The notes under the pieces were generated by a model. That model did no database searches. It had not been told where the DNA came from and saw nothing but the letters and a program-made list of their open reading frames with translations. The position numbers and the translations under genes are program-made. Below, one piece after another: positions 8,452 through 64,000 of a DNA stretch of 64,000 bases. Source of the DNA: Alphaproteobacteria bacterium (GTDB taxonomy: Bacteria; Pseudomonadota; Alphaproteobacteria; MPNO01; VGEU01); assembly GCA_016869145.1 (NCBI GenBank), contig VGEU01000001.1:49234-113233 (forward strand), in the 5' to 3' direction. How positions within the stretch are numbered: the first letter of the stretch is position 1; each line of letters opens with the position of its first letter.

Positions 8452-9690
8452 TCACGCAGGCGGCTTGTAGCTCGGAAACCGCTCGCTGACGTCGAGGTTG
8501 AACAGCCGTCGCGCGTTCTCGCCGAGGATGTTGCGCTTGGCCTTCTCCGACAGGAACGGAAGGTCCCATACGGTGTTGGGCAGATCCATATCCCAGTGCG
8601 GATAGTCGGAGGCGTAGAGAAGTTGCGTCTCGGCGTTGATGGCCCGGAACGTCGCCTCGAGGAGGTAGGTGTCGTTGGCGTGGTCGGGCCGTTCCATCGG
8701 CTGGGTCGTATAATACATCTCGCGCATGTATTCGGACGGCAGCCGCTTGAGCGAGGGACACTCCGAGGAACGCATGCGGAACTCGGTGTCGATCCGCTGC
8801 ATCAGCCACGGCACCCAGGCGATCCCCGACTCGATCCAGATCGTCTTGAGCTTCGGGAACCGCTCGGGGAGCCCGTTGACCACCCAGTTGGTGCAGTGGA
8901 CGACATTGTGCCAGGTGAAGCCGAGGGCGTGGACGGCGATGAAGCGGTTGCAGTTCTTGAGCAGCGGATCGTCCCAATTGAAGCCGGAATGGAATCCGAT
9001 CGGCTTGCCCATCTCCTCGCAGAGCGCATAGATCTTCATGTAGTCGTTGTCGTGGATCGGCTTGTGGCGGACCGTCGTCACCATGAAGCCGATGACGCCC
9101 GGGCAGTCGCCGAAGTCCTGGACCATCCGATAGGCCGCCTCGTGGTCGTTGAGCGGGAGGAACAGCATGGTCTTTATGCGCGACGAGCCGGGCAGGACCT
9201 TCTCGACGAGCCAGCGGTTATAGGCGCGCGCCAGGTTGGCCTCGACCTCGGCCTGCGGGTGCATGGCGAGACCGAGCATCGGGGTCGGGAACATGCAGGT
9301 GTAGTCGACGCCCATCGCATCCATCCAGCGATGGGTCAGATGGACGTCGCGGTGGCGGCCGTCCTTGGGCGTCGGCTCGATCCGGCGCAACGGATAGCGC
9401 GTGACGCGCCCGCCGATGTCCTGATAGCCGACGCGGCCCATCGAGAACATGCCACCGCGCTGGTTGACCAGGCGGCTCGCCTCGGCGAGCTGCTTGAGGA
9501 CCGGGTCCTCGATGAACTCGATGATCTCGCCGTAGGAATCGCTCTCGTAATGGTGCGAGTCGACATCGATGATCAGGACGTCCTGGAACTTCCGCTCGTC
9601 GCGTTGGCGCGCGGCATTGGCGAGGAGCGTCGTGGTGTCGAAGCTCTCGACACTGTGCTTGTAGTACTGCTCGCTGGTCGGAAGGTCCAT
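8452..9690 (-). CDS. Amidohydrolase_2 (ACMSD/LigW-type metal-dependent decarboxylase/hydrolase family) protein
   Basis: 412 aa. The N-terminus has IIDVDSHHYES, an internal HSGF motif and a C-terminal SDYPHWD motif, all typical of PF04909 amidohydrolase 2. Confidence 0.85.
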   Translation of the reverse strand: MDLPTSEQYYKHSVESFDTTTLLANAARQRDERKFQDVLIIDVDSHHYESDSYGEIIEFIEDPVLKQLAEASRLVNQRGGMFSMGRVGYQDIGGRVTRYPLRRIEPTPKDGRHRDVHLTHRWMDAMGVDYTCMFPTPMLGLAMHPQAEVEANLARAYNRWLVEKVLPGSSRIKTMLFLPLNDHEAAYRMVQDFGDCPGVIGFMVTTVRHKPIHDNDYMKIYALCEEMGKPIGFHSGFNWDDPLLKNCNRFIAVHALGFTWHNVVHCTNWVVNGLPERFPKLKTIWIESGIAWVPWLMQRIDTEFRMRSSECPSLKRLPSEYMREMYYTTQPMERPDHANDTYLLEATFRAINAETQLLYASDYPHWDMDLPNTVWDLPFLSEKAKRNILGENARRLFNLDVSERFPSYKPPA

Positions 9691-15954: not shown

Positions 15955-18099
15955 TCAGCCCGTGGCGTGAAGGCCCCAGAACGGTTTGCTGTAGCCGGGC
16001 GAACGCGGCTCCGGCCACGCGCCGTAGTAGCGGACGACCTCGTCCGGCGGCTTCCGCTTCGACCAAGCCCTCATGAACGCATCGAACGGCTTGCCCTTGC
16101 GCCGCCGCTCGCGACGGAGCGCGGCGCGGGCCCGTTCGGTCGCCGCACGGTCGACGAGGCCGGTCTCGGGATCGATCAGGACGCGATAGATGTCGCGTGC
16201 GACGGCCTCGGTGATCATGCCGTCGCGGAGGTCGCGGACGACCGCCTCGGGCTCGCGCTCGAGCACATCGCCATAGCCGCCGCCACCGCCCATGCTGAAG
16301 ATCATTAAGTCGCCTTCCTCGAACTTTTCCGCGCGCTGGCCGGACGGCTCGATGCGGTAGGTGCCGGCCAGCTTCTGCTCGGTGAGGAGCGCGTAGTAGC
16401 TGAGATCGACGTCCTCGCCCTCTGCGATGCGCGCGAAGAAATCGGACCTCTTGATGATGATGCGCGGATTGGGCGGGCCGTAATAGCCGCCCATCAGGCC
16501 GGGATTGTGGCTCAGCTTGTCGGCGCTGCCCCATGAGCTCAGGACACAACCGAGATGACCGCACGCGGTCGACACCTCGACGAGCGGCGCGCCGCCGCGA
16601 TATCTGCCGTAGCCGTGATAGTTGCGGTCGATCCGCCGATCGAGCACGAAATGCGGCAGACGGGTGTCGGTCTCCTCGGTCTCGCCCGAATCGGTGAACG
16701 GTCCCCAGAAGAACCCGATCGCGCTCTCGCCGTCGGAATCGAAGCGCGCCCCCTGCCCGGCCGCATTTGTCGCACCCGAGAAGTTCGCCGCCATATAGCC
16801 GCGCCGGTTCTCGCCCGAGAACACGAAGACGTTCTGGTTCCGCGAATGCGGTGCCTGGACCGCCTCGCGATAGGCGCTGTCGAACAGGAGCTTCGAGCCG
16901 AGGACATGCGCGCCGTTGACCACGCAGGCCGCGATCGAGGTTCCCATGCCGTGCGCGACGTCGTAGCTCGAGTTCGCGATCGACGGCCCCTCGACGAGAT
17001 AGCGGATCGGCTGCAGAAGGCCGGCGTTCGGTTTGAGCCCGCGATAGAAGTAGGAGAAGAGGTATACGGCGCTCGCCGCACGGACGAGATGCCAGGTGCC
17101 GTGCATCGGCCCGACCTTGTTCTCGGGCGAGACGCCCTGGACCAGGATCGTGAGCCCGTCACCCTCCTTGATCATCGTCACGGGTATGCGCGTCAGCCCG
17201 AGCGCGCCGCCGAGATCGTCGTCGTTGAACATGACCGCGCGGAAGATCCCGTCGTTGAGCTCGGCGATCCGCGCGCGCGCCTCGATCTCCGCCCGCATCA
17301 GGATCCGCCGCATGCCGCCGACGACCATGTGGACACCGCGCCGCTCGACCTCGCGCATGAGGCGGTCGCGGATCAGCTTCAGGGTCGCGACGCGCGAGCG
17401 GAGATCGGCGGCGAAAACGAACGGGTTGCGGACCGACCCGGTCATCATGTCGAGGACGTCCTGGTTGAGAAGCCAGTCGCTCCCGATCCGCATCATCTGG
17501 ATGTGGAGACCCTCCTCGTAGCGCGAGCGAGCCTTCGAGTTGAAGCCGCCCGGCGTCGGCGAGCCGGAATCGCCCTGATGGCCGCCACAGCTCACCCAGC
17601 CGACCAGCTCCTCGCCGAAGAACACGGGTGCGGCGGTGAACATGTCGAAGGCGTGCACGCCGCCCGCGGTCTCGTCGTTGAAGAAATAGATGTCGCCGTC
17701 GCGGAGCCCGACGGTCGGATTGGGACGGTAGTACTTGTTGACGTATTTGAGCTGGGCGTTGTTGAGCATCGTGTGGAAATAGATGCCCGTCGCGACCGCC
17801 ACCGGATCGCCCGAGGCGGTGAAGAGGCCGCAATTCATGTCGCCGGTGATGACGCTCTCGGTGATCGAAAGCGCCATGTAGACATCGCGCGCCTCTTCGA
17901 CGATCGCGGTCAGCTTGTGGTGAAGGAGCTCGACGTCGAGATCGTTCACACGCCCGATGCCTTCGGCCTCGAGCGCCGTGACCGGCTCGAGGCCGTGGCA
18001 GATCAGATCGGGGTCGACGCCCGGCCCGCGCCCATAGGCGTCACGGTCATAAGTGAGCCCCGCGGTGAGCCGGACGTGATGATCGAACAGGGCGCCCAT
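15955..18099 (-). CDS. Hydantoinase B / oxoprolinase (HyuB) family protein, acetone-carboxylase-alpha-like, tandem copy 1
   Basis: 714 aa, with GDMNCGLFTASGDPVAVATGIYFH, a glycine-rich GGGGGYGDVLEREPEAV segment and a C-terminal extension. It is about 70% identical to the next gene. Confidence 0.85.
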   Translation of the reverse strand: MGALFDHHVRLTAGLTYDRDAYGRGPGVDPDLICHGLEPVTALEAEGIGRVNDLDVELLHHKLTAIVEEARDVYMALSITESVITGDMNCGLFTASGDPVAVATGIYFHTMLNNAQLKYVNKYYRPNPTVGLRDGDIYFFNDETAGGVHAFDMFTAAPVFFGEELVGWVSCGGHQGDSGSPTPGGFNSKARSRYEEGLHIQMMRIGSDWLLNQDVLDMMTGSVRNPFVFAADLRSRVATLKLIRDRLMREVERRGVHMVVGGMRRILMRAEIEARARIAELNDGIFRAVMFNDDDLGGALGLTRIPVTMIKEGDGLTILVQGVSPENKVGPMHGTWHLVRAASAVYLFSYFYRGLKPNAGLLQPIRYLVEGPSIANSSYDVAHGMGTSIAACVVNGAHVLGSKLLFDSAYREAVQAPHSRNQNVFVFSGENRRGYMAANFSGATNAAGQGARFDSDGESAIGFFWGPFTDSGETEETDTRLPHFVLDRRIDRNYHGYGRYRGGAPLVEVSTACGHLGCVLSSWGSADKLSHNPGLMGGYYGPPNPRIIIKRSDFFARIAEGEDVDLSYYALLTEQKLAGTYRIEPSGQRAEKFEEGDLMIFSMGGGGGYGDVLEREPEAVVRDLRDGMITEAVARDIYRVLIDPETGLVDRAATERARAALRRERRRKGKPFDAFMRAWSKRKPPDEVVRYYGAWPEPRSPGYSKPFWGLHATG

Positions 18100-18141: not shown

Positions 18142-20286
18142 TCACGCACCGTTGCGATACAATCCCCAGAACGGTTCCTTATAGGATTCGAGGCGCGGTT
18201 CCGGCCAATTGCCGTAATAGGTGAGCACATCCTTGGGCGGCTTGAGCTTCGACCACGACTTGATGAACTGGTCGAAGGTCTTTCCCTTGGTGAGCCGCTC
18301 GTGGCGCGCCTTGGCGCGGCGCTTCATGGTGGCTGCGGGATCGAGAAGGCCGGTCTCGGGGGTGATCGCGACCCGATAGACCTTCTCTGCGACGTCCGTG
18401 GTGATGATGCCGGCATCGAGGTCGGCGAGCACCGCCTCGGGCTCGCGCTCGAGCACGTCGCCGTAGCCGCCGCCGCCGCCGCAGGAGTGGATGAAGATGT
18501 CGGCATCCGTGAACCGCTCGGCGCCCTTGGCGCTCGAGGACAGGATGTACTCGCCCTCGACCGTCCGCTCGGTCAGGAGCTTGTACTGGCCGAGCTCGAT
18601 GTCCTCGCCGGCGGCGATCCGTTCCTGGATGTCCGATTTCTTGAGGACGAAACGCGGGTTGGGCGGCCCGGCATAGCCGCCGAACAGCCCCATATTGTGG
18701 CTCACCTTGTTGCCCTGCCCCCAGGTCGCGACCAGGCAATTGCGATCGACGCAGCCGATCCCGATCTCGACCAGCGGCGTGCCGCCGCGGAACTTGCCGA
18801 AGCCGTGGAAATTGGTATCGAGCTTGCGCGACAGGATGATGTGCGGCATGCGGTCGTCGGCGTCCTCGACCTCGCCCGCGTCGCAGAACGGGCCCCAGTA
18901 AAAGCCGACCGCGTCCTCGGCATCCATGTCGAAGCGTCCGCCGCCGCCGCCGGCATTGACCGTACCCGTCATGTTCGCCGCGTAGTAGCCGCGCCGGTTC
19001 TCGCCGCCGATCGACGGCACCACGTAGTTGCGCGAGTGCGAGGCCTGCACGGCCTCACGATACGGGCTCCCGAACAGCATCTTGGCGCCGGCGATGAAGA
19101 GGTTCTGCGTGATGAAGGCGCAGGCCGACGGCGAGTTGCCGTGCGCGACCTCATCGGTCGCATTCACCATCGACGGCCCTTCGATCAGATAGCGCACCGG
19201 CTCGAGAAGGCCGGCATTCGGCATCAGCCCGCGGAAGAAGTAGGAGAACAGGTAGACGCCCGTCACCGCACGGGCGAGATGCCAGGAGCCGTGGAACGGC
19301 CCGATCGAGTTCTGCGGCGAGGTGCCCTGGACGAGAACGGTGAGCCCGTCGCCCTCCTTGAAGACGGTGAGCGGCACCCGCGTCAGGCCGAGATAGTTGC
19401 CGTGCTCGTCGTTGAACACGACCGAGCGGAAGATGCCGTCGTTGATCTCGCGGAGCCGCCCGCGCGCCGACTGCTCGCCCTTGATCAGGATGCGGCGCAT
19501 GCAGCCGACCACGACCTCGACGCCGCGTCGCTCGACCTCGCGGATGAGCCGCTGGCGCATCTGGAACATGGTGGCGACGCGCGACTTGAGATCGGCAATG
19601 AACACGAACGGGTTGCGCACCGCGCCGCCCATCATGTCGAGGACGTCCTGGTTGAGGCGGAAGTCGGAGCCGATCCGCATCGCCGGGATGTGGAGCCCCT
19701 CCTCGTAGCGGGTCGAAGCCTTGGGCGCGAAGCCGCCCGGCGTCGTCGAGCCGGTCTCGCCCTGGTGGCCGCCGACCTCGGCCCAGGCGATCAGCTCGCC
19801 CTTGTAGAAGATCGGCATCGCCGTGAACATGTCGAAGACATGGATGCCGCCGCCGAGCTCGTCGTTGAAGAAATAGATGTCGCCGTCCTGAAGACCTACC
19901 GTCGGGTTCGGCCGGTAGTACTTGTTGATGTACTTGATCTGGCCGTTGTTGAGGAGCGTGTGGAAGTAGATCCCGGTCGCGACCGCGACGGGATCGCCCG
20001 AGGCGGTGAATATCCCGCAGTTCATGTCGCCGGTGATGATCCCTTCCGAGATCGACAGCGCCATATAGACGTCGCGCCCCTCCTCGACGATCGAGGAGAG
20101 CTTGTGGATCATCAGATCGGCGTCGATCTCGGATACGCGCTCCATGCCGCGGCGCTCGATCTCGGTCACGGGCTCGAGGCCGTGACAGATCAGCTCAGGA
20201 TCGCAGCCGGGCCGCTTGCCGTAGACGTCCATGTCGTAGGTGAGCCCGTCGAAGAGCCGGGCGTTTTGTTCGAACAGCAAGCCCAT
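18142..20286 (-). CDS. Hydantoinase B / oxoprolinase (HyuB) family protein, tandem copy 2
   Basis: 714 aa, paralog of the 15955-18099 gene. No HyuA-type (ATP-binding hydantoinase A) gene is adjacent. Confidence 0.85.
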   Translation of the reverse strand: MGLLFEQNARLFDGLTYDMDVYGKRPGCDPELICHGLEPVTEIERRGMERVSEIDADLMIHKLSSIVEEGRDVYMALSISEGIITGDMNCGIFTASGDPVAVATGIYFHTLLNNGQIKYINKYYRPNPTVGLQDGDIYFFNDELGGGIHVFDMFTAMPIFYKGELIAWAEVGGHQGETGSTTPGGFAPKASTRYEEGLHIPAMRIGSDFRLNQDVLDMMGGAVRNPFVFIADLKSRVATMFQMRQRLIREVERRGVEVVVGCMRRILIKGEQSARGRLREINDGIFRSVVFNDEHGNYLGLTRVPLTVFKEGDGLTVLVQGTSPQNSIGPFHGSWHLARAVTGVYLFSYFFRGLMPNAGLLEPVRYLIEGPSMVNATDEVAHGNSPSACAFITQNLFIAGAKMLFGSPYREAVQASHSRNYVVPSIGGENRRGYYAANMTGTVNAGGGGGRFDMDAEDAVGFYWGPFCDAGEVEDADDRMPHIILSRKLDTNFHGFGKFRGGTPLVEIGIGCVDRNCLVATWGQGNKVSHNMGLFGGYAGPPNPRFVLKKSDIQERIAAGEDIELGQYKLLTERTVEGEYILSSSAKGAERFTDADIFIHSCGGGGGYGDVLEREPEAVLADLDAGIITTDVAEKVYRVAITPETGLLDPAATMKRRAKARHERLTKGKTFDQFIKSWSKLKPPKDVLTYYGNWPEPRLESYKEPFWGLYRNGA

Positions 20287-47060: not shown

Positions 47061-47279
47061 CGTCGCGCTCTCCCTTGGTCGATGCGAGCCGCGTCGGTAT
47101 GGCGGCGGCCCTGGCAGCCAGTCCAACTCATGTTCTCGAAGGCCGGACTATAACGTCTCATCGGCCTCGGGCAACGCCAAACGGCCGGCGATCGGCCGCG
47201 CCGAGCCGATCAAGTTGACTCGCTCAAGCGGCCCCTGCGATGGTGGCGACGCCGCCAACCGACAAGCTTGGAGTTCGCC

Positions 47280-48686
47280 ATGCCGCATACGCTCCGGTCG
47301 TTCCTCGACAACATCCATAACCGGATTCTCAACATCCACGATCCGGTGCGCCCGGAAACGCAGATCGGCATCCTGTGCTCGGAGAGCCGGAGCCCGCTGA
47401 TGTTCCACAATCTCGTCGGCTATCCCGGCTTCAAGCTGACCGACATCTTGATCAAGGACCGGCGCGGCCAGGCCGCCGCTCTTGGCCTCGACAACATCAA
47501 GGAGGTCTGCCCGTTCCTCGCCAAGCAGATGTCGGCCGGCCCCGGACGCTCCACCATCGTCAAAGACGGTCCGGTGAAGGAGGTCAAGCTGATCGGCAAG
47601 AACGCCGATATCCGTAAGCTTCCCATCCCGCAGCACAGCCACGGCGATGCCGGGCGCTATCTCGGCTCCGGCATCACGATCACCAAGGACCCCGAGACCG
47701 GCATCCGGAACGAGTCCATTCTCCGGATGCAGCTCACCGACGATCCGCACAAATGCCCGTTCTGGATGGCGGCACGACACAACTATAGCCACTATCTGAA
47801 ATACGTCGCGCGCGGGGAATCGATGCCGATGGCGTTCGCGATCGGCCTCCACCCGGTCTACGAGATCATTGCCAACTGGTCGGGTCGGCACGAGGACTTC
47901 GACGAGCTCGAATATGCGGCCGGCGTCCTCGGCGAGACGGTCGAGCTCGTGAAATGCGAGACCATCGACCTCGAGGTTCCGGCGCATGCCGAGATCGTCA
48001 TCGAAGGCCTCGTCCATCCGACCGAGCGCATGCCCGAGGGTCCGTTCGGCGAGTTCACCACCCTCGGCACCGGCGCCGAGGGACCGGCCCCGGTGTTCAC
48101 CGTGACCGCGATCACCCACCGCAAAGACCCGATCTTCCGCCACATGCAGGCGACGTGGTTCACCGACCACCAGCCGTTGATCACGCTTCCCATGGAGGCC
48201 GCCTATTACAACCGGCTGCGCGACACCCACGGCAACACCAAGGTCCTCGACGTGTTCGTGCCGCCCTGGGCGTCGCAGTTCATGATGGTGGTCCAGGTCG
48301 AGGCGAAATGGGACGGCCAGGTCACCGATATGCTCATGTCGGCGCTGTCGGGCCCCAACCTCCACGTCAAGGTCGCGATCGCCGTCGACGAGGACGTCGA
48401 TCTCTACAACGCCGAGGACGTCCTGTGGGCGATCGCCGCCCGCTGCAACCCGCAGACCGATGTCTGGGTGCATCCGAACTCGCGGCTCCACCCGCTCGAC
48501 GTCTCGATCCCGCAGATCGGCGACGAGTACACGGTGATGCGCGTCGGCGGCAAGCTCGCGATCGATGCGACCCGTCCGCCGACCTGGCGCAAGAAGGAGC
48601 GTGACAGTCTCGGCCGCGTCGATCCGATGGGCAAGCACGACCCGGCGATACAGAAGATCCTCGAGATGGTGCGCCTGCCGCGCTGA
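47280..48686 (+). CDS. UbiD-family (prFMN-dependent) decarboxylase, type B paralog
   Basis: Start at MPHTLRSF (RBS TTGGAG); 468 aa, with GRYLGSG, EGPFGEFTT and the UbiD fold. It is about 35% identical to the 55853-57295 gene. Confidence 0.85.
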   Translation: MPHTLRSFLDNIHNRILNIHDPVRPETQIGILCSESRSPLMFHNLVGYPGFKLTDILIKDRRGQAAALGLDNIKEVCPFLAKQMSAGPGRSTIVKDGPVKEVKLIGKNADIRKLPIPQHSHGDAGRYLGSGITITKDPETGIRNESILRMQLTDDPHKCPFWMAARHNYSHYLKYVARGESMPMAFAIGLHPVYEIIANWSGRHEDFDELEYAAGVLGETVELVKCETIDLEVPAHAEIVIEGLVHPTERMPEGPFGEFTTLGTGAEGPAPVFTVTAITHRKDPIFRHMQATWFTDHQPLITLPMEAAYYNRLRDTHGNTKVLDVFVPPWASQFMMVVQVEAKWDGQVTDMLMSALSGPNLHVKVAIAVDEDVDLYNAEDVLWAIAARCNPQTDVWVHPNSRLHPLDVSIPQIGDEYTVMRVGGKLAIDATRPPTWRKKERDSLGRVDPMGKHDPAIQKILEMVRLPR

Positions 48687-53692: not shown

Positions 53693-55204
53693 ATGGCGAA
53701 GTCCCTGCGGGACATAGTCCCCGGCGGCAAGTCTGCGAGCAACCTTCAAGCTGTCCTGCCGTACAAGGACTTGCGGCAATGGCTTGAGGAAGCGAAGAAG
53801 CTCGGCGAGGTCGTCATCGCCAAGGGCCTCGGTGTCGAGGAGGAGATCGGCGCCGCCGCCGAGATGGTGATGCAGCGCGACGATGCGCCTTGCGTCGTGT
53901 TCGACGAGATCCCGGGCTACCCCAAGGGCCATCGCGTGCTCGTCAATTTCTTCGGCGGCAAGCGCAAGAACATGACGCTCGGCTTCCCAACCGAGCTTTC
54001 GAAGATCGACCTCTCGGAGGCCTACTACTCCAGCCAGATCAAGGAATTGCCGTCGATCCCTCACGTTATCGTCGAGAGCGGTCCGGTGACCGAGAACATC
54101 AAGGAGGGCGATGCGATCGACGTCACGGCCTTCCCGGCGCCGATGTGGCATCCGGCCGATGGCGGCCGCTATCTTGGCACCGGTTCATATGACGTCACCA
54201 TCGATCCCGATTCGCGGTGGATGAACCTCGGCACCTACCGCGTCATGGTGATGGATAAGAAGACGGTCGGCTTCTACATCTCGCCGGGCAAGCACGGCCG
54301 GGTCCATCGAGACAAGTGGATGGCGCGCGGCGAGCCGATGCCGGCGGTGATCGTCTGCGGCGGTGACCCGATGACCTTCCTCGCCGCCTGCACCGAGATG
54401 CCGCAGGGTCAGTGCGAGTACGACATCGTCGGCGGCATGCGCGGCGAGGCGCTCAAGTGCATCAAGGGCAAATACACCGGCATTCCCTTCCCGGCCGACG
54501 CCGAGATCGTGATCGAGGGCTTCGTCGACCCCAGGGAGCGCCGCCCCGAAGGGCCGTTCGGCGAGTGGACCGGCTATTACGGCTCCGACATGCGCGACGA
54601 GCCGGTGATGCATGTGAAGGCGGTCTATCACCGCAACAACCCGATCATCCTCGGCTGCCCGCCGCAGCGCCCGCCCGACGAGATGTGCCGCTATCGCGCC
54701 ATCACGCGCTCGGCGATGCTCCGCTCCAATGTCGAGAAGGCGGGTGTGCCCGATGTCGCCGCCGCCTGGGCGCATGAGGTCGGCAACGCGCGGATGCTCC
54801 TCGGCATCGCGATCAGGCAGCGTTATCCCGGCCACGCCAAGCAGGCCGGCCATGTCGCCGCGATGTGTCATGTCGGCGCCTATGCCGGCAAATATGTCGT
54901 GGTGACCGACGAGGACATCGACGTGTCGAACCTCGAGGAGCTCACCTGGGCGATGCTCACCCGCTCCGATCCCGCGACCTCGATCGACATCATCCATGGC
55001 GCCTGGTCGACGCCGCTCGATCCGCGCATTCCGCCCGACGAAAAGAAGAAGGGTAACATGACCAACAGCCGGGCGATCATCGACGCCTGCCGGCCCTTCC
55101 ATTGGCGGAACGAGTTCCCCAAGGTCAACGCCCCCTCGCCCGAGGAGGCGCGCCGGGCGCGCGAGCGCTTCGGCTATCTCCTCGAGGGCAAGGACAAGCC
55201 CTAG
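53693..55204 (+). CDS. UbiD-family (prFMN-dependent) decarboxylase, type A paralog 1
   Basis: 503 aa, with GGRYLGTGSY, EGPFGEWTGYYG and the C-terminal HAKQAGH...TDEDIDV. It is about 70% identical to the 57376-58884 gene, with long stretches identical at the DNA level in inverted orientation. Confidence 0.9.
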   Translation: MAKSLRDIVPGGKSASNLQAVLPYKDLRQWLEEAKKLGEVVIAKGLGVEEEIGAAAEMVMQRDDAPCVVFDEIPGYPKGHRVLVNFFGGKRKNMTLGFPTELSKIDLSEAYYSSQIKELPSIPHVIVESGPVTENIKEGDAIDVTAFPAPMWHPADGGRYLGTGSYDVTIDPDSRWMNLGTYRVMVMDKKTVGFYISPGKHGRVHRDKWMARGEPMPAVIVCGGDPMTFLAACTEMPQGQCEYDIVGGMRGEALKCIKGKYTGIPFPADAEIVIEGFVDPRERRPEGPFGEWTGYYGSDMRDEPVMHVKAVYHRNNPIILGCPPQRPPDEMCRYRAITRSAMLRSNVEKAGVPDVAAAWAHEVGNARMLLGIAIRQRYPGHAKQAGHVAAMCHVGAYAGKYVVVTDEDIDVSNLEELTWAMLTRSDPATSIDIIHGAWSTPLDPRIPPDEKKKGNMTNSRAIIDACRPFHWRNEFPKVNAPSPEEARRARERFGYLLEGKDKP

Positions 55205-55852: not shown

Positions 55853-57295
55853 TCACCCGAACACGTCGGGGAACTTGGCACGCACCGCTCGGGCGAGCTC
55901 GGGCGAGGTCTGGGCGACCTTTGGGAAGGTCTCGAGCCGCTCATAGGGGATGCAGGCGTCGATGACGGCGCGGCTGTTGTAGAGCTCCTTCCCCGTCACC
56001 ATCGGGTCGAGGCGCGAGGACCAGGTCTTGGTCAGGATCTGGATGTCCTGTTTCGGGTCCGAGCGCGTCCCCATCGCCCAGATGACGTCGTGGATGTCGG
56101 AGGGGTCGATATCTTCGTCGACGACGACGATGTAGCGCCCGACATAGCCGACCGGGTTGACCTGCGAGGCGACCATGCCGACCTGGGTCGAGTGGCCGAA
56201 ATAGCGCTGGCGGATCGCGACGACGACGAAGGTGCGCCCCGAGCCCGCCTGGTGCACCCACACGCCCTTGACGTCGGGAATGCCCGCGCCCTCGAGCGAG
56301 TCCATCAACGCCGCCGAGCGGATGAAGCAACGCTCGAACAGATGCGAGTGCGGCGGCTTCTGGCTCGCGGCGCAGGTGAGGATCGGGTCGTTCCGCCAAT
56401 AGGCCGCTTTGATCCGGATCAGCGGCTCCATCTTGGCGTCGCCCGCGTAATAGCCGGTCCATTCGCCGAACGGACCTTCCAGCACCTGCTCGTCCGGAAC
56501 GCACTCGCCCTCCAGCACGATCTCGGACTGCGCCGGGATCGGCAGACCCGTGATCGGGCCGGGCACGCAATCGATCGGCGCGCCGGCGATGCCACCCGCC
56601 CAATCGAGCTCGGCAACCGTGTCGGCGAGCGTGTAGCGCGCGGCGATGTAGCTCACGGGATCGATGCCGACCACGATCGCCATCGGGCACGGCTTGCCGC
56701 TCTTGAAGTATTTGTCGCGATGGATGCGGCCCTGCTTGCCGTTCGAGATGTAGGACGCGCAGCTATTGCCCGAGATCACCTGCACGCGATAGGTGCCCAT
56801 GTTGATGCGCCCGGTATCCGGATCGCGGGTGATGACGGCGCACGCGGTCCCGATATAGCGCCCGCCGTCGAGCTCGTGGTGGATCGGCACCGGAAACTTG
56901 AGGAGATCGACCGCCGCGCCTTCGGCGATGTTCTCCATCACCGGGCCGCGCTCGACCATGCGTGGCGGGATCGGCTTGTTGGTCTTGATCTGCTTGCGGA
57001 ACTGGTCGAGGAGCGCCATGCGGTCGCGGCTCGCGACGCTCGCATCGAGACCGAAGCCGAGCGCGAGCCGGAAGGGCGAGCCGAGCATGCCGTAGATGCA
57101 GCGGAAGCCCTTGGGATAGCCCGGAATGTCGTCGAAGAGTAGGAGCGGCGAGCGATCGACCTTCTCGCGGTAGAGCACCTCGGTGACCGCACCCATCTCC
57201 TTGTCCCAATGGGCCCGGTTCACCGTCTTGAGCTCGCCGCCCTTCTCGACCGCGGCGAGAAAGGCGCGGAGATCGGTTTGCACCGCGTTGCTCAT
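55853..57295 (-). CDS. UbiD-family (prFMN-dependent) decarboxylase, type B paralog
   Basis: 480 aa, with GGRYIGTACAV, EGPFGEWTGYYAG and the UbiD fold. Confidence 0.9.
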   Translation of the reverse strand: MSNAVQTDLRAFLAAVEKGGELKTVNRAHWDKEMGAVTEVLYREKVDRSPLLLFDDIPGYPKGFRCIYGMLGSPFRLALGFGLDASVASRDRMALLDQFRKQIKTNKPIPPRMVERGPVMENIAEGAAVDLLKFPVPIHHELDGGRYIGTACAVITRDPDTGRINMGTYRVQVISGNSCASYISNGKQGRIHRDKYFKSGKPCPMAIVVGIDPVSYIAARYTLADTVAELDWAGGIAGAPIDCVPGPITGLPIPAQSEIVLEGECVPDEQVLEGPFGEWTGYYAGDAKMEPLIRIKAAYWRNDPILTCAASQKPPHSHLFERCFIRSAALMDSLEGAGIPDVKGVWVHQAGSGRTFVVVAIRQRYFGHSTQVGMVASQVNPVGYVGRYIVVVDEDIDPSDIHDVIWAMGTRSDPKQDIQILTKTWSSRLDPMVTGKELYNSRAVIDACIPYERLETFPKVAQTSPELARAVRAKFPDVFG

Positions 57296-57375: not shown

Positions 57376-58884
57376 TCACTTGGTGAGCCAGCCCCATTTC
57401 TCGCGCGCTTCCTTGGCGAGCTCGGGCGACGGCGCGTTGACCTTCGGGAACTCGTTCCGCCAATGGAAGGGGCGACAGGCGTCGATCACGGCGCGGCTGT
57501 TGGTGAAATTGCCCTTCGCCTTGTCCTCCGGCGAGATGCGCGGATCGAGCGGCGTCGACCAGGCGCCATGGATGATGTCGATCGAGGTCGCGGGATCGGA
57601 GCGGGTGAGCATCGCCCAGGTCAGCTCCTCGAGGTTCGACACGTCGATGTCGTCGTCGGTGACGACGATGTATTTCCCGGCATAGGCGCCGACGTGACAC
57701 ATCGCGGCGATGTGCCCAGCCTGCTTGGCGTGACCGGGATAACGCTGCTTGATCGACACCGCGACCAGCATGCGCGCGGTGCCGACCTCGTGCAGCCAGG
57801 CGGCGGTGACATCGGGAACGCCGGACTTGGCGATGTTCTCCTTGAGGAGCGCCGAGCGGGTGACCGCGCGATAGCGCGCGAGCTCGTCGGGCGGGCGCTG
57901 CGGCGGGCAGCCGAGAATGATCGGGTTGTTGCGGTAATAGATCGCCTTGATGTCGAGCACTGGCTCCTCGCGGTGCTTGGAGCCGTAATAGCCCGTCCAC
58001 TCGCCGAACGGCCCCTCTTCGCGCATGTTGCCCGGGCGCACGAAGCCCTCGATCACGATCTCGGCGTTGGCCGGGAACGGCAGCCCGGTATGCTTGCCGA
58101 GAACGACGTCGATCGGCTTGCCGCGGAAGCCGCCGACCACGTCGTACTCGCAGACATTCGGCGGTATCTCGCTGCAGCCCATGAGGAACGTCATCGGATC
58201 GCCGCCGCACACGATCACCGCCGGCATCGCCTCGTTGCGCTGCATGTACTTGTCGCGGTGGATGCGGCCGTGCTTGCCGGGCGAGATGTAGAACCCGACC
58301 GATTTCTTGTCGTGGATCATCACCCGGTAGGTGCCGAGATTGAGCCAGCCGGTGTCGGGGTCCTTGGTGACGTTGTAGCTGCCGGTGCCGATATAGCGGC
58401 CGCCGTCGTCGTCGTGCCAGAGCGGCGTCGGGAACGCGTTCACGTCGACCGCATCGCCCTCCATGATGTTCTCGGTCACCGGGCCCGCTGCGACCACGCG
58501 CGGCGGAATCAGCCGGAGATCCTCCATGTAGTTGTGCCGGAACGCATCCGTGAGCTCGATCTTGTTGAGCTCGGACGGGAAGCCGAGCGTCATGTTCATG
58601 CGCCGGCCGGAGAAGAAGTTGCACAGAACGCGCGAGCCCTTGATCGTGCCGGGCACGTCCTCGAACACGACGCAGGGCGCCTTCTCATCGTGCAGGATCA
58701 CCTCGGCCGCCATGCCGATGTCGCGCTGCCAGGACGCGCCCTTGACGAACTTCACCTCGCCGAGCTTCTCGGCCTCGGTCAGCCAGCCGCGAAGATCGTC
58801 ATAGGGAATGCGGAGCTCGTTGGCCCGATCGCTGCTGCCGGTCGCGGCGAGCTTGCCGATCGCGTTGCCCATGTCGTCGACCAT
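57376..58884 (-). CDS. UbiD-family (prFMN-dependent) decarboxylase, type A paralog 2 (inverted duplicate of the 53693-55204 gene)
   Basis: 502 aa. Its C-terminal half is nearly identical to that of the 53693-55204 gene (PAVIVCGGDPMTFL ... GHAKQAGH ... RPFHWRNEFPKVNAPSPE). Confidence 0.9.
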   Translation of the reverse strand: MVDDMGNAIGKLAATGSSDRANELRIPYDDLRGWLTEAEKLGEVKFVKGASWQRDIGMAAEVILHDEKAPCVVFEDVPGTIKGSRVLCNFFSGRRMNMTLGFPSELNKIELTDAFRHNYMEDLRLIPPRVVAAGPVTENIMEGDAVDVNAFPTPLWHDDDGGRYIGTGSYNVTKDPDTGWLNLGTYRVMIHDKKSVGFYISPGKHGRIHRDKYMQRNEAMPAVIVCGGDPMTFLMGCSEIPPNVCEYDVVGGFRGKPIDVVLGKHTGLPFPANAEIVIEGFVRPGNMREEGPFGEWTGYYGSKHREEPVLDIKAIYYRNNPIILGCPPQRPPDELARYRAVTRSALLKENIAKSGVPDVTAAWLHEVGTARMLVAVSIKQRYPGHAKQAGHIAAMCHVGAYAGKYIVVTDDDIDVSNLEELTWAMLTRSDPATSIDIIHGAWSTPLDPRISPEDKAKGNFTNSRAVIDACRPFHWRNEFPKVNAPSPELAKEAREKWGWLTK

Positions 58885-59374: not shown

Positions 59375-61711
59375 TCAAGCCGCGCGCTCTGCCGCGGCGA
59401 TGGCCCGCCACACGGTCTCGGCCGTGACCGGCATGTCGATCGCCGTGATCCCGAGCGGCGCGAGCGCATCGATCACCGCGTGGACGACCGCCGGCAATGC
59501 CCCGACGGTTCCGGCCTCGCCGGCCCCCTTGAGGCCGAGCGGATTGGTGCGGCACGGCACCTCGTTGGTCTCGATCGTGATCGGGCAGAAATCATCGGCG
59601 CGCGGCATCGCGTAGTCCATGAACGATCCCGAGAGCAGCTGACCGCTCGCCGGGTCGTAGGCGACGGTCTCCATCAGGGCTTGGCCGACGCCCTGCGCGA
59701 TGCCGCCGTGCACCTGGCCGTGGAGGAGAAGCGGGTTGACGACGCGCCCGACATCGTCGACCGCCGCGTAGCGGACGATCTCGATGCGGCCCGTCTCGGG
59801 GTCGATCTCGACCTCGACGATGTGGCAGCCATTGGGAAAGCTCGGCGGGCCGGTCACGAACGTGCCGGCCTCGTCGAGGCCCGGCTCCATGTCGCCCGGC
59901 AGGAGATCGGGGCGATAGGCGGCACGGGCAATCTCGGTGATCGCGATCGCGCGATCTGTTCCCGCAACCGTGAACCGGCCGGCGTCGTAGACGATGTCCT
60001 CGGGCGCCGCCTCGAGCCGGTGCGCCGCGATCCGGCCGGCCTTCGCCACCATCTTGGCGACGGCGTTCGCGATCGCGTTTCCGATCAGCGTCATCGAACG
60101 CGAGCCACCGGTGCCGCGCCCGAACGAGACGATATCGGTATCGCCCTGGACGAACCGGATCGCGTTCATCGGCACCCCGAACGCGGCCGCGACCATTTGC
60201 GGAAACACGGTCTCGTGCCCCTGACCGTTCGACATCGAGCCGACGATCAGCGTGATGTGGCCGGACGGGTCGAAGCGGATCTGGGCGCGGTCGTCGGTCT
60301 GGCCGGCGCAGCGCTCGATATAGTTCGCGATGCCGATGCCGCGGAGCCGCCCGCGTTCGCGCGCTTCGGTGCGGCGCGCGGGGAAGCCGTCCCAGTCTGC
60401 GATCGTCTTGGCGCGCGCCATGTTGGCCGCGAACTCGCCCGAGTCGTAGGTGAAGATCAACCCGGTCTTGAACGGCATCGCCTCGGGTGGGATGCAGTTC
60501 CGCCGGCGCAGCTCCGACGGATCGAGGCCGAGCTCGCGCGCCGCCTGGTCGACGACGCGCTCGATCACGTAGATCGCCTCCGGGCGGCCGGCACCGCGAT
60601 AGGGACAGGTCGAGTTGTTGTTGGTGAGGACGCCCGTCACCGCGACCGTGATCGCGGGTGTCGTGTAGACACCGGCGAGCATGCCGAGGCCGGTGACCGG
60701 CACGAAGGCGCCGAGATTGGCCACATAGGCCCCGACCGAGGCGAGCGTCGCGACGCGGAGCGCGAGGAACCGGCCGTCGGCATCGAGCGCGAGCTCGGCG
60801 GTCGAGACGTTGTCGCGCGCGTGGGCATCGCTCATCAGCGATTCCGATCGGTCGGCGATCCATTTGACCGGCCGCCCGCCGATCCGCCGCGAGGCGAGGA
60901 GGAGAAGGGGATACTCGGCATACATGTTGCCGCCCTTCATCCCGAACGAGCCGCCGAAATCGCGGCAGATGATGCGGATGCGGTTCTCCGCGATCTTCAG
61001 GATGTCCTGGGCGAGTTGCTGACGCGTGCGGTGCGGCCCCTGCAGCGGCGCATGCAGAAGATAGCGGTCCTCGGCCGCGTCCCACACGCCGATCGCGCCA
61101 CGCGTCTCCATCGGGTTGGCCGAGACACGGTTGTTGACGATCCGAACGCGCGTCACGTGCGCGGCGCGTGCGAAGGCGGCGTCGACCTTGGCGACATCGC
61201 CGGCGACGTGCTCGAAGGCGATGTTGCGCGGCGCCTCGTCCCAGACCAGCGGCCGGCCCGGATCGGTCGCGGTCGCCGTGTCGGTGACGGCGGGCAGCGG
61301 CGCATAGTCGACCTCGACCCACTCGGCGGCATCGCGCGCCGCCTCGGCCGTCTCGGCGACGATGCAGGCAAGCGCGTCGCCGACATGGCGCACCCGGTCG
61401 CCGGCGAGCAGCGGGCGGGTCGGGAGAATGCTCGTGGTCCCCGGCTTGGGTCGCGGGGCGACCTGGACCGGGATGTGCCCGAGACCCTCGGCCTCGACAT
61501 CGGCCGCGGTCAGCACCAGGAGGACACCGGGCGCCGTCGCGGCGCGTTCGGTGCGGAGCGCACGGACCCGGGCGTGGGCGTGCGGCGAGCGGACGAACAC
61601 GGCATGGGTCATGGCGGGCATGCGGACATCATCGACATAGAGCCCGCGTCCGGTCAGGAGCCTCGGGTCCTCGGTCCGCGGGACCGGCTGCCCGAACCCG
61701 AACTTCTCCAT
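59375..61711 (-). CDS. Xanthine dehydrogenase family molybdopterin-binding large subunit (orphan)
   Basis: Start at MEKFGFGQPVPRTEDPRLLTGRGLYVDD; 778 aa, with GGSFGMKG, GAGRPEA and QVHGGIAQG motifs. Confidence 0.85.
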   Translation of the reverse strand: MEKFGFGQPVPRTEDPRLLTGRGLYVDDVRMPAMTHAVFVRSPHAHARVRALRTERAATAPGVLLVLTAADVEAEGLGHIPVQVAPRPKPGTTSILPTRPLLAGDRVRHVGDALACIVAETAEAARDAAEWVEVDYAPLPAVTDTATATDPGRPLVWDEAPRNIAFEHVAGDVAKVDAAFARAAHVTRVRIVNNRVSANPMETRGAIGVWDAAEDRYLLHAPLQGPHRTRQQLAQDILKIAENRIRIICRDFGGSFGMKGGNMYAEYPLLLLASRRIGGRPVKWIADRSESLMSDAHARDNVSTAELALDADGRFLALRVATLASVGAYVANLGAFVPVTGLGMLAGVYTTPAITVAVTGVLTNNNSTCPYRGAGRPEAIYVIERVVDQAARELGLDPSELRRRNCIPPEAMPFKTGLIFTYDSGEFAANMARAKTIADWDGFPARRTEARERGRLRGIGIANYIERCAGQTDDRAQIRFDPSGHITLIVGSMSNGQGHETVFPQMVAAAFGVPMNAIRFVQGDTDIVSFGRGTGGSRSMTLIGNAIANAVAKMVAKAGRIAAHRLEAAPEDIVYDAGRFTVAGTDRAIAITEIARAAYRPDLLPGDMEPGLDEAGTFVTGPPSFPNGCHIVEVEIDPETGRIEIVRYAAVDDVGRVVNPLLLHGQVHGGIAQGVGQALMETVAYDPASGQLLSGSFMDYAMPRADDFCPITIETNEVPCRTNPLGLKGAGEAGTVGALPAVVHAVIDALAPLGITAIDMPVTAETVWRAIAAAERAA

Positions 61712-61788
61712 GCCCCGCCCTTCGTCCCGCCGGTGGTCTGATGCCACGGCGCATTGTACGGTGGCCGCCGCGTCGGGAGGAAGAACGC

Positions 61789-62925
61789 ATGACGGAGGTC
61801 GATCGCGGCGGCGGCCTGCTCCGGGCCGCGGCGCGGGCGCGCGAGGCGCATGGCTTCGCCGCGCGCCGCCTCGTCGATGCCGATCTCCGCCTCGTCGAGC
61901 TCGCGTTCTGGGACGAGATCGGCGATTTCGTCCCCGACCGCGTGATGCGCAACCTCGCGCTGGTGCGCCGCCCCGGCCGACCCGGGCTCCTGCCCCCGCC
62001 GGCGGGTTGGACCGATCTCGCCGGCCGCATGGTGCGGGAGGACGTGGCCGCGGCGCGCGCCGCCTGGCAGGGCAATGGCCACGCCGCGCCCGGCCTCCTC
62101 CGCCGCACCATGGCGGCCTTCGGCGTCGAGGCCGCGATCGTCGTGCCGACCGCCCTTCTCTTCCTCGGCGTCCACCCGCAGCCCGAGGTCGAGGTCAACC
62201 TCGCCCGTGCCTATAACCGCTGGGCCGTCGCGCGCCTCGCCGGCGAGGCCGGGCTCCGGCCGTTCCTGATCCTGCCATTCAACGTGCCGGAGGCGTGCGC
62301 GGCGATCGTGGCGGAGTTCGGCGCCGCCGACGGGATCGCCGGCTTCCTGGTCCCCGTGATGCGCACGCGTGGCATCCACGACAACGCCTACGCCCGCGCC
62401 TATGCCGCGATCGAGGAACGCGCGCTCCCGCTCGCCTTCCACGCCGCGTGGCACTGGACCGAGAGCGCGACACACCAGGCGAACCGTTTCCTCTCGGTCT
62501 ACGCGACCCAGCCGGCGCAGACGCTCGCGGTGCAGGCCACGCACTGGATCGTCAACGCGGTGCCCGAGCGTTTCCCCCGGCTCCGCGTGGTGTGGATGGA
62601 AGGCGGCCTCGCCTGGATCCCGTTCCTCGCCCAGCGCCTCGACACCGCCTACCGCGCACGCCCGTCGGAGGCACCCGGCCTGACGCGGCTCCCGAGCGAA
62701 TATCTCTGCGCCATGCATTTCGCGACACACCCGTGCGACGTCGACGAAGCGGGCCTCGCCGATGTCGTCGCCCGTGTCGGCGTCGATACGCTCCTCTGGT
62801 CGTCCGGCTATCCGCAGTGGAACTTCGATGGGCCGGCCTGGATCGACGGGGCCGCCGCGCTCGACGAGGCCGCGCGCGCGGCGATCCTCGGCGGCAACGC
62901 CCGGCGGCTGTTCGGCCTCGCCTGA
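61789..62925 (+). CDS. Amidohydrolase_2 (ACMSD-family)-like protein with substituted metal-binding and catalytic residues; a putative non-catalytic paralog
   Basis: From MTEVDRGG. It aligns along its length with the 8452-9690 protein (PEVEVNLARAYNRW; GIHDNAYARAY; PERFPRLRVVWMEGGLAWIPFLAQRLD; LPSEYL). However, the N-terminal D-S-H-H is replaced by D-L-R-L, and SDYPHWD by SGYPQWN. Confidence 0.65.
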   Translation: MTEVDRGGGLLRAAARAREAHGFAARRLVDADLRLVELAFWDEIGDFVPDRVMRNLALVRRPGRPGLLPPPAGWTDLAGRMVREDVAAARAAWQGNGHAAPGLLRRTMAAFGVEAAIVVPTALLFLGVHPQPEVEVNLARAYNRWAVARLAGEAGLRPFLILPFNVPEACAAIVAEFGAADGIAGFLVPVMRTRGIHDNAYARAYAAIEERALPLAFHAAWHWTESATHQANRFLSVYATQPAQTLAVQATHWIVNAVPERFPRLRVVWMEGGLAWIPFLAQRLDTAYRARPSEAPGLTRLPSEYLCAMHFATHPCDVDEAGLADVVARVGVDTLLWSSGYPQWNFDGPAWIDGAAALDEAARAAILGGNARRLFGLA

Positions 62926-62928
62926 GGT

Positions 62929-63738
62929 TCAGGCGAAGCGGATCGCGATCCCCTCGAGCGGCAGGCCGTGGAGACGGGTCGACCAGCTTTCCACGGACCG
63001 CACCGGGAACGCACGCGTCACGGTTCCGGTCGTCACGATCTCGCCGGCCGCAAGCGGTGGATTGTCCGGATCGCGGTCCAGGAGCGCCACGAGATGGCCG
63101 AGCGCGCGGAGCGGCCCGTCGAGTACATTGCGGGCATGGCCGCGGTCCATCCGCTCCGCGCCGCGGACGAGCTCGATCTCAAAGTCGCCGAGCGCCGCGA
63201 TCCAGTCGGTCCGCCCCTCATGCGCGGAGAGACGCGGGCCGATGAAATAGGCGCCATGCAGCCCATAGCCCGCGACCGCGTCGGGTGCGGCGAATTTCCC
63301 GCCGGGAAAGACCGACTGCACGATCTCGAAGCCGTGGCCGACCGAGTCGATGCAGCCGAGGAGGGCCTTTTCGTCCATGTCGGGTCGCGGCGCGGCGCGG
63401 AGCCCGAACACGATCTCAGGCTCGATCAGCGGCTCCGACAGCTCGGCGAGCCCGACGCCGTCGCGCGCGGCAGCGCCGTCGCGCACCGTGCGGTCGTACA
63501 TGTAGCCCCAGATCGGGGCGTCGACCTGGTATTCCGGCCAGATCGTCCGGTTTGAGAATCCGATCTTGCGCCCGACGACGCGCTCGCGCTTCGCCTCGCG
63601 CCGCGCGCGCACCCGCGCGGTGACGCGATAGGCCTCGGCGAGGCCGAATGCGGGAACGCAGCTCGTGAGCGGCCTCGTGCTGCCACCGGTTCCGAGAAGG
63701 CCGACCATCTCGGCTGCGATCACATCGACATCGACCAT
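62929..63738 (-). CDS. 2-keto-4-pentenoate hydratase / 2-oxohepta-3-ene-1,7-dioate hydratase family (MhpD/HpaH-like, FAH fold)
   Basis: Start at MVDVDVIAAEMVGLL; 269 aa. Conserved hydratase-family stretches include GRKIGFSNRTIWPEYQVDAPIWGYMYD and EPEIVFGL. Confidence 0.75.
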   Translation of the reverse strand: MVDVDVIAAEMVGLLGTGGSTRPLTSCVPAFGLAEAYRVTARVRARREAKRERVVGRKIGFSNRTIWPEYQVDAPIWGYMYDRTVRDGAAARDGVGLAELSEPLIEPEIVFGLRAAPRPDMDEKALLGCIDSVGHGFEIVQSVFPGGKFAAPDAVAGYGLHGAYFIGPRLSAHEGRTDWIAALGDFEIELVRGAERMDRGHARNVLDGPLRALGHLVALLDRDPDNPPLAAGEIVTTGTVTRAFPVRSVESWSTRLHGLPLEGIAIRFA

Positions 63739-63748
63739 GGTGGGCTCC

Positions 63749-64000
63749 TCAGACCTTGAAGACGCTCTGCACCTCCGGTGCGAAGAGTTCCTCGGGCGAG
63801 ACCTTGCGATGGCAGACACCCTGCTCGTGCGCATAGCGCAGAAACGCCTCGAGCGTGGTCCGGTTCTTCTCGATCCCGTAGGGGAAGAAGTCCTCGCCGA
63901 CCAGCGCCTTGGTCTTCTGTGCGGCGTCGTAGCACCAGGCGAACGGAAACCGCGTCGCGGTGATCTCGAGCGCGCGCGCCATCGAGCGGTTCTTCGCCTC
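63749..64000 (-). CDS. Hypothetical protein, C-terminal fragment (the gene starts beyond the window end)
   Basis: The minus-strand ORF continues to the window edge, ending ...EAFLRYAHEQGVCHRKVSPEELFAPEVQSVFKV-stop. The codon usage is consistent with neighbouring genes. No family assigned. Confidence 0.4.
   Translation of the reverse strand, partial: EAKNRSMARALEITATRFPFAWCYDAAQKTKALVGEDFFPYGIEKNRTTLEAFLRYAHEQGVCHRKVSPEELFAPEVQSVFKV

Follow-up and report, generated by a model that had tools for sequence, protein, structure and literature searches.

The open reading frame (ORF) at positions 61789-62925 of the window, i. e. the whole 64,000-nucleotide stretch of alphaproteobacterial DNA that was analyzed, encodes a protein of Pfam family PF04909 that is most closely related to the Mn/Fe oxygenases of the ARO superfamily and whose metal site appears to have been dismantled. 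We refer to it as pARO, for ARO-derived pseudo-oxygenase. It almost certainly does not work as an oxygenase, since a second metal could not be bound and probably no metal is bound at all. Site 2 of the Mn/Fe center was lost first and throughout a small clade, before the branch leading to the window copy also lost a cupin partner and the site-1 His. The protein would still be translated and may still fold as an ARO TIM barrel, with relaxed purifying selection maintaining it, most likely in a binding or structural function that involves no catalysis. Among the states considered, we regard this one, a barrel that is translated and metal-free and has some non-catalytic role left, as the most likely, at about even confidence.

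By sequence as well as by predicted structure, the nearest relatives of pARO are AROs. Two motifs that hold the Mn/Fe pair define this superfamily, D-x-H in the N-terminal and D-x-P-H-x-D/E in the C-terminal part (PMC13154177); among its members are AibH2, SfbO, TruffO, PtmU3 and DitZ (PMC13154177, PMC10811679, PMC10401708). In a Pfam search pARO matches PF04909 with E=4.5e-21, and in the PDB it retrieves 8SM7/8SM9 (TruffO/SfbO entries, 1e-22) and AibH2 (6M1W_B, 7.5e-20), followed by AibH1 (3e-12) and ACMSD (~1e-5). The AlphaFold2 model, calculated from a 121-homolog alignment (pLDDT 92, pTM 0.92), likewise places AibH2, SfbO and TruffO on top in Foldseek with TM scores of 0.74-0.79, while ACMSD reaches 0.63-0.65. 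A second, intact family member is encoded in the window at 8452-9690 on the minus strand; pARO is 39% identical to it over the full length (BLASTP, E=3e-91), and both match PF04909. This paralog carries the ARO rather than the ACMSD motifs and is a canonical ARO. Its best PDB match, 8SM7 (E=2e-39), is followed by 8SM6 (SfbO), 8SM8 and 8SM9, then AibH2 (6M1W_B) and PtmU3, with ACMSD chains at ~1e-7. An earlier note on this DNA, made by a model from the letters, had called the paralog an ACMSD-family enzyme, a label that is true at the Pfam level only. ACMSD, gamma-resorcylate and LigW-type decarboxylases have the Pfam family and the overall barrel in common with pARO but differ in their N-terminal motifs and in a mononuclear Zn/Mn site, and their matches are far weaker. 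Because both window proteins are AROs, the residues lost from pARO are ligands of a dinuclear Mn/Fe oxygenase and not the catalytic Asp/His of an ACMSD.

The metal ligands of AibH2 are Asp25, His27, His211, Glu265, Asp337 and His340, and Asp342 is a second-sphere residue (PMC7782822). Four of the seven corresponding positions are replaced in pARO (H34R, D340G, H343Q and D345N), among them all three residues of the site-2 loop (Table 1). In the alignment, I-I-D-V-D-S-H-H-Y-E of the paralog faces L-V-D-A-D-L-R-L-V-E of pARO, and S-D-Y-P-H-W-D faces S-G-Y-P-Q-W-N. The substitutions described in the earlier note (D-S-H-H to D-L-R-L and SDYPHWD to SGYPQWN) are hence exact, and they also hold in the alignment with PF04909 members that it had proposed, in which nearly all homologs are canonical. 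H238Y and H249Q (His in 113 of 121 homologs at position 249) come in addition, so that pARO departs from canonical members at Q75, H238 and H249, all of them 94-100% conserved there. A regular-expression check of the whole protein found neither D-x-H nor D-x-P-H-x-[DE] and no His beyond residue 314; the ligands are therefore lost and not shifted. They are all present in 117 of the 121 best database matches, and the C-terminal D340 and H343 are missing only in pARO itself (database cluster P0001) and in P0002, P0003 and P0004. Among 62 further homologs the motif is missing only in four more members of the same clade, while P0128 shows a single D345N change. Sequencing errors, which the earlier note had named along with shifted ligands as possible refutations, do not account for the replacements either: the same states recur across the clade, and L001, a Logan assembly made independently, matches the window without a difference over 3,681 bp.

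As judged from these residues, pARO would be unable to assemble the dinuclear cofactor or to activate O2, and dinuclear chemistry is effectively excluded. The protein is probably metal-free, since Arg34 occupies a ligand position and the ortholog P0002, which has Arg34 as well, additionally dropped the carboxylates D32 and E271. Pseudoenzymes are generally understood as homologs of active enzymes in which cofactor residues are replaced, as in pARO, and the "likely pseudo-enzyme" of the earlier note is best rendered as a candidate pseudo-enzyme. Alternatively, the barrel may have been remodelled for non-redox catalysis such as hydrolysis, decarboxylation or isomerization at a mononuclear or metal-free site, as in other members of PF04909, a family that includes the metal-independent lactonase LigI. 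The residues D32, H218 and E271 that are left form a 1-His-2-carboxylate set, and the neighborhood is rich in aromatic-acid catabolic genes. However, the absence of D32 and E271 from P0002 implies that selection does not maintain them in this lineage, Arg34 sits at a metal-ligand position, the three highly conserved residues named above are replaced, and the raised evolutionary rate detailed below is unlike that of a working enzyme. Remodelled catalysis is thus an unlikely explanation for pARO. It is plausible for the cupin-linked relatives described below, which evolve under normal selection with four of the five site-1 ligands in place; a group of marine proteins that is also devoid of site-2 ligands and lies in a catabolic operon would fit it as well.

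The sequences compared indicate that the loss of site 2 is an old, inherited state, shared and derived, of a small alphaproteobacterial clade; being common to all its members, it is neither a sequencing error nor a product of chance. The clade comprises eight database clusters (P0001-P0004 and P0121-P0124), the last four of which were added by a profile search with the first four sequences, in which clade members score at least 559 bits and canonical proteins at most 505. In a comparison with the ~180 closest homologs, those outside the clade being essentially all canonical, G340 occurs in all eight clusters and Q343 in seven (Ala in P0002), while position 345 is Asn in six, Asp in P0002 and His in P0121. 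All eight also have an invariant R-P-G-R-P loop. These clade-specific motifs (RPGRP, G340/Q343/N345 and Y238) are all kept in the window copy. In a neighbor-joining (NJ) tree that included five of the eight clusters, the clade is monophyletic. A scan of GTDB genomes found it in one Rhodospirillaceae metagenome-assembled genome (MAG; locus L008, apparently the P0121 protein), and a metagenome scan with a DNA pattern for G-Y-P-Q-W-[NH]-F-D returned seven matches, none of which encodes an ARO relative, and no new clade members.

Apart from the motifs, a Rieske-type ferredoxin encoded nearby is typical of many AROs, although not strictly defining, and such a gene lies two genes upstream of P0005, the closest canonical ARO. 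No Rieske ferredoxin was found among the genes checked around pARO in the window and L001, nor in the neighborhoods listed or scanned for L002, L005-L008 and L039-L041, in which some L008 ORFs have no Pfam match; a Pro_CA_2 gene in L006 gave a weak match to the twin-arginine (TAT) signal domain of Rieske subunits only. Taken together, pARO shares with AROs the PF04909 TIM barrel, the site-1 His (H218) and Glu (E271) as well as Pro and Trp of the C-terminal motif, but has D-L-R and G-Y-P-Q-W-N in place of the two signature motifs and no Rieske ferredoxin gene in sight.

Site-2 ligands are also missing from a highly conserved ARO-like group in 23 marine alphaproteobacterial MAGs (L009-L031, e. 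g. L009:2871-4076 on the plus strand; locus GC content 47-71%). These proteins keep D-x-H, His and Glu, and show S-N-Y-P-L-[PS]-D where canonical members have S-D-Y-P-H-W-D. Their genes lie in an operon of the order Ldh_2, dihydroxyphthalate-decarboxylase-like, ARO-like, glutathione S-transferase, metallo-beta-lactamase and HIBADH. A single loss of site 2 shared with the clade was considered and rejected, as an NJ tree, here a simple distance tree without support values, puts the marine group sister to the intact paralog and P0109. Since it is thus not sister to the pARO clade, site 2 was probably lost twice.

Most members of the clade (P0003 and P0121-P0124; 373-382 aa) kept D-x-H and four of the five site-1 ligands, and their genes are, as gene order and overlaps suggest, translationally coupled to a conserved cupin. 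They directly follow a 170-aa Cupin_2 gene, with a 4-bp overlap in three loci (L039/L040, L041 and the P0123 contig). The cupin is 75-82% identical between loci and carries an H-x-H...E motif; a PDB search with it gave marginal matches only, to uncharacterised cupins and to no characterised homolog, and the literature search found no description of the pair. Usually, the cupin gene lies downstream of cysG-DUF2849-NIR_SIR-DUF934 (assimilatory sulfite reductase), and a convergent PF04909 gene for a 289-293-aa protein related to 4-sulfomuconolactone hydrolase follows the cupin-linked pARO. In these loci the non-synonymous divergence (dN) of the pARO gene, 0.12-0.25, lies inside the range of its neighbors (0.08-0.37); the cupin-linked proteins are hence under ordinary purifying selection and evolve at normal rates. 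With pARO they share the lost site-2 ligands (G-[YF]-P-Q-W-[NH]), the RPGRP loop and a similar length, whereas D-x-H, the cupin coupling, the sulfite-reductase operon and the neighbor-like rate set them apart from the window copy.

On a derived branch of the clade, made up of the window copy and P0002, the cupin was lost and the site-1 His exchanged for Arg, and pARO evolves about three to four times faster than its flanks. L007, the contig that carries P0002, is syntenic with the window: genes for a 329-aa decarboxylase-like protein and for a PF14518 protein are 83% and 87% identical, while the two pAROs are 57-59% identical. For pARO, dN is 0.35 versus 0.09-0.125 for the flanking genes, i. 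e. 2.8-3.8 times higher. The NG86 ratio of non-synonymous to synonymous divergence (dN/dS) is 0.46 versus 0.16-0.22, values that are rough because dS is near compositional saturation at a third-position GC content (GC3) of ~0.9. In the NJ tree, root-to-tip distances are 0.36-0.38 for this lineage and 0.27 in the median. No cupin was found by tblastn in the window, L001 or L007. The composition has changed as well, in a GC-driven drift toward Ala, Gly, Pro and Arg: both pARO and P0002 are devoid of lysine, and in pARO these four residues add up to 44% versus 25% in the intact paralog, with GC raised at the first and second codon positions and a GC3 of 0.90 at the level of bona fide genes in the window. 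Of the residues with a conservation of at least 90% in the family, pARO keeps 72%, P0002 63%, P0003/P0004 82-85% and five canonical members 91-98%. Given these figures and the three- to fourfold rate, the "otherwise well-conserved ORF" of the earlier note was an overstatement.

Such a record could also be left by a decaying relic that lost its function together with the cupin partner and the site-1 His and is now drifting toward a pseudogene, its ORF intact because stop codons are rare at high GC. This is a serious rival, which we consider possible but not probable. It would explain the accelerated dN, the eroded conserved residues (fewer still are kept in P0002, and 63-78% of the clade-invariant ones in pARO), the shifted composition and the stepwise fall of profile hidden Markov model scores (677, 576, 554, 466 and 398 bits). 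The missing cupin, a scan that found no promoter-like site and the position of a single plus-strand gene wedged between minus-strand genes, with spacers of 77 and 3 bp, fit it, too. On the other hand, two genomes whose flanking proteins differ by 13-17% both retain a full-length ORF. The roughly four indels that separate the window copy from P0002 internally are all in frame, and both starts are preceded by a strong, correctly spaced Shine-Dalgarno sequence, a comparable GGAGGGAGG in the case of L007. Non-synonymous changes are rarer than synonymous ones (per-site proportions pN 0.28 and pS 0.48; crude Fisher p=2e-8). Substitutions moreover avoid the conserved columns, with an identity between window and P0002 that rises from 0.41 at family-variable to 0.71 at least 90%-conserved columns (p=2.6e-5), a gradient that would not arise by neutral drift after the two had separated. 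The retention of RPGRP, G340/Q343/N345 and Y238 in full likewise speaks against a relic. In-frame indels, the conserved Shine-Dalgarno sequence, a dN/dS of ~0.46 and the site-wise gradient thus suggest that pARO is still translated and under relaxed but detectable purifying selection.

Several observations weigh against the view of a retained metal-free barrel. Taking as reference the residues without variation in the remaining six clade members, pARO lost 22% of those that canonical AROs have as well and 37% of the clade-specific ones, which fits an ongoing loss of function. Part of the constraint signal may predate the relaxation, and the confidence of the AlphaFold2 model largely mirrors an alignment dominated by canonical homologs. 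In a genome of 68% GC long ORFs arise by chance, so that an intact ORF by itself says little. The absence of stop codons was for this reason dropped as a sign of selection; an antisense ORF of 358 aa (61654-62730, minus strand) overlaps pARO and is, like further long overlapping ORFs nearby, an artefact of the GC content and not a gene. In the 77-bp divergent intergenic region no sigma-70-like promoter was found, which is a weak test; a promoter and terminator scan of 61400-63100 that found nothing is uninformative for an alphaproteobacterium. Finally, the suggested binding or structural role is a candidate role. As to the gene borders, the public annotation of P0001 ("MAG: amidohydrolase [Alphaproteobacteria bacterium]") starts at the same ATG, 61789, and the stop codon ends at 62925.

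A precedent for a non-catalytic ARO barrel is AibH1H2, whose two PF04909 barrels share 28% identity and assemble into a heterotetramer; AibH1 is essential in it but non-catalytic (PMC7782822). By analogy, pARO could assemble with the intact ARO (8452-9690) into a hetero-oligomer, supporting its hydroxylase activity, given that the two are related, have the fold in common and are encoded in one genome. We consider this very unlikely. A distance of 52 kb separates the two genes, while aibH1 lies next to aibH2, and the paralog is the only other ARO in the window; no second ARO occurs within the available DNA (up to 10 kb each side) of L001-L008. In the PDB search pARO is closer to AibH2 than to AibH1, and it is devoid of two of the five mononuclear-site residues of AibH1 (His to Arg34 and Asp to Gly340). 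Like pARO, AibH1 is an ARO-fold protein whose site 2 is not functional and which is regarded as non-catalytic; unlike pARO, it has a full mononuclear site (D-x-H, H, E, D) with only the last Asp missing, and its gene adjoins that of the catalytic partner (PMC7782822).

pARO is the lone plus-strand gene between two minus-strand genes, which are as the earlier note had described them, a large subunit of a Mo-hydroxylase and a distant MhpD/DmpE-like hydratase. The gene context lends no support to the scaffold or regulatory role, or to the interaction with the hydroxylase or the distant paralog, that the same note had suggested. The Mo-hydroxylase probably starts at the ATG ending at 61711, while its ORF reaches a GTG at 61747, as read from the sequence. 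By tblastn, the MhpD/DmpE-like gene is found only in the window and L001 and is absent from L007. It is followed by the decarboxylase-like gene, which the window end cuts and which in L001 continues to its full 329 aa, next to a PF14518 heme-oxygenase-like "iron-containing redox enzyme" of 245 aa (L001:3430-5179 for the two genes together). Besides L007, L008 has the decarboxylase-like gene as well, 75% identical and 3.3 kb from its clade member, and a 36%-identical homolog lies directly upstream of the marine ARO-like gene in 22 of 23 MAGs. This recurrence beside AROs without site 2 is suggestive. That the gene is a general ARO neighbor was considered and rejected, as two canonical AROs have a Rieske ferredoxin or tandem ARO paralogs beside them instead, a comparison that is weak at n=2. 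No NCBIfam model matches pARO, the intact paralog, the cupin or the decarboxylase-like and heme-oxygenase-like neighbors. The wider region with four UbiD paralogs, TctC receptors and a second Mo-hydroxylase large subunit is not conserved beside other clade members.

Table 1. Coordinates of pARO, its diagnostic residues and related genes (window positions unless a locus is given).
Feature	Position	Strand	AibH2 counterpart	Remarks
pARO ORF	61789..62925	+		378 aa; database cluster P0001; PF04909
Shine-Dalgarno GGAGG	61776..61780	+		8 nt before ATG 61789; read from sequence
D32-L33-R34 in place of D-x-H (site-1 metal ligands)	61882..61890	+	Asp25 (D32, kept); His27 (R34, replaced)	His in 119/121 homologs; Arg only in pARO and P0002
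R61-P-G-R-P65	61969..61983	+		clade motif; invariant in 8/8 clade members; not in canonical consensus; loop variable in canonical AROs
H218	62440..62442	+	His211 (kept)	site-1 His; invariant in 121/121 homologs
Y238 in place of His	62500..62502	+		His in 117/121 homologs
E271	62599..62601	+	Glu265 (kept)	Gly in ortholog P0002
G340-Y-P-Q343-W-N345 in place of D-x-P-H-x-D/E (site-2 metal scaffold)	62806..62823	+	Asp337 (G340, replaced); His340 (Q343, replaced); Asp342 (N345, replaced)	D, H, D in 117-118/121 homologs
Intact ARO paralog (comparator)	8452..9690	-		D44-S-H46; D362-Y-P-H-W-D367; best PDB match 8SM7, E=2e-39
Mo-hydroxylase large subunit	59375..61711	-		divergent; Ald_Xan_dh_C, MoCoBD_1 and MoCoBD_2; 77-bp spacer to pARO
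Distant MhpD/DmpE/DmpH-like hydratase or decarboxylase	62929..63738	-		convergent; NCBIfam matches far below family cut-offs; 3 bp after pARO stop
4,5-Dihydroxyphthalate-decarboxylase-like gene (329 aa), 3' part	63749..64000	-		cut by window end; PDB 9JP7, E=1.5e-64
Cupin and site-2-less ARO pair	L002:9479-11137; L039:3705-5353; L041:3479-5118; L008:5566-7281			

Conceivably, the clade re-uses the dead ARO barrel as non-catalytic, substrate-binding partner of the small, metal-binding cupin encoded behind the sulfite-reductase genes, in which case the window copy could be an orphaned, re-recruited metal-free binder that works with the adjacent decarboxylase-like and heme-oxygenase-like genes, Arg34 replacing the metal cation. 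The marine lineage, in which site 2 was lost separately, is paired with a dihydroxyphthalate-decarboxylase-like protein, too. We regard this scenario as improbable.

Pseudoenzymes are common, and the window gene by itself is a modest case, one more likely pseudoenzyme that is possibly on its way out. The difference here lies in an ARO lineage from which site 2 disappeared although no catalytic partner is adjacent, and in which one branch then lost site 1 as well; in the literature search no ARO pseudoenzymes other than AibH1 were found to be described. AROs are a recently recognized superfamily of ~17,000 sequences, and as it is defined by exactly the two motifs missing in pARO, motif-based censuses exclude such proteins, all of which are currently labelled "amidohydrolase". 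Together, they provide a graded natural series from dinuclear via roughly mononuclear (the clade and the marine S-N-Y-P-L-P-D group) to putatively metal-free (the window copy). This series shows what the barrel tolerates after cofactor loss, and it could inform on metal selectivity, on the unexplained role of dead subunits of the AibH1 type and on annotation.

Some further genes of the window deserve mention. Downstream of the intact ARO, a 135-aa CxxCxxCC protein (PF03692; 7980-8387, minus strand), putatively Fe/Zn-chelating, is encoded instead of a Rieske ferredoxin and could serve as an alternative redox partner; the ARO gene is preceded by one for a DctP-type TRAP binding protein. Another contig has a group of three canonical ARO genes at short distances (L043:4248-9218; 407, 405 and 405 aa, one of them P0012). 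Two of these stand in direct tandem, and the three are possible hetero-oligomeric AROs. Of the two Mo-hydroxylase large-subunit genes of the window (13516-15867 and 59375-61711, both on the minus strand), neither had a 2Fe-2S (small) or FAD (medium) subunit among the neighbors checked, no scan of the whole window having been made. Two Hydantoinase_B/oxoprolinase paralogs of 714 aa each stand in tandem (15955-18099 and 18142-20286, minus strand), and the clade member in L002 has Hydantoinase_B, UbiD and MFS genes within 10 kb. The four UbiD paralogs mentioned above (47268-48686, 53693-55204, 55853-57295 and 57376-58884) fall inside a stretch of 12 kb, with genes for TctC receptors and an MFS transporter in between, and this cluster looks like a catabolic island for aromatic or heteroaromatic carboxylates.

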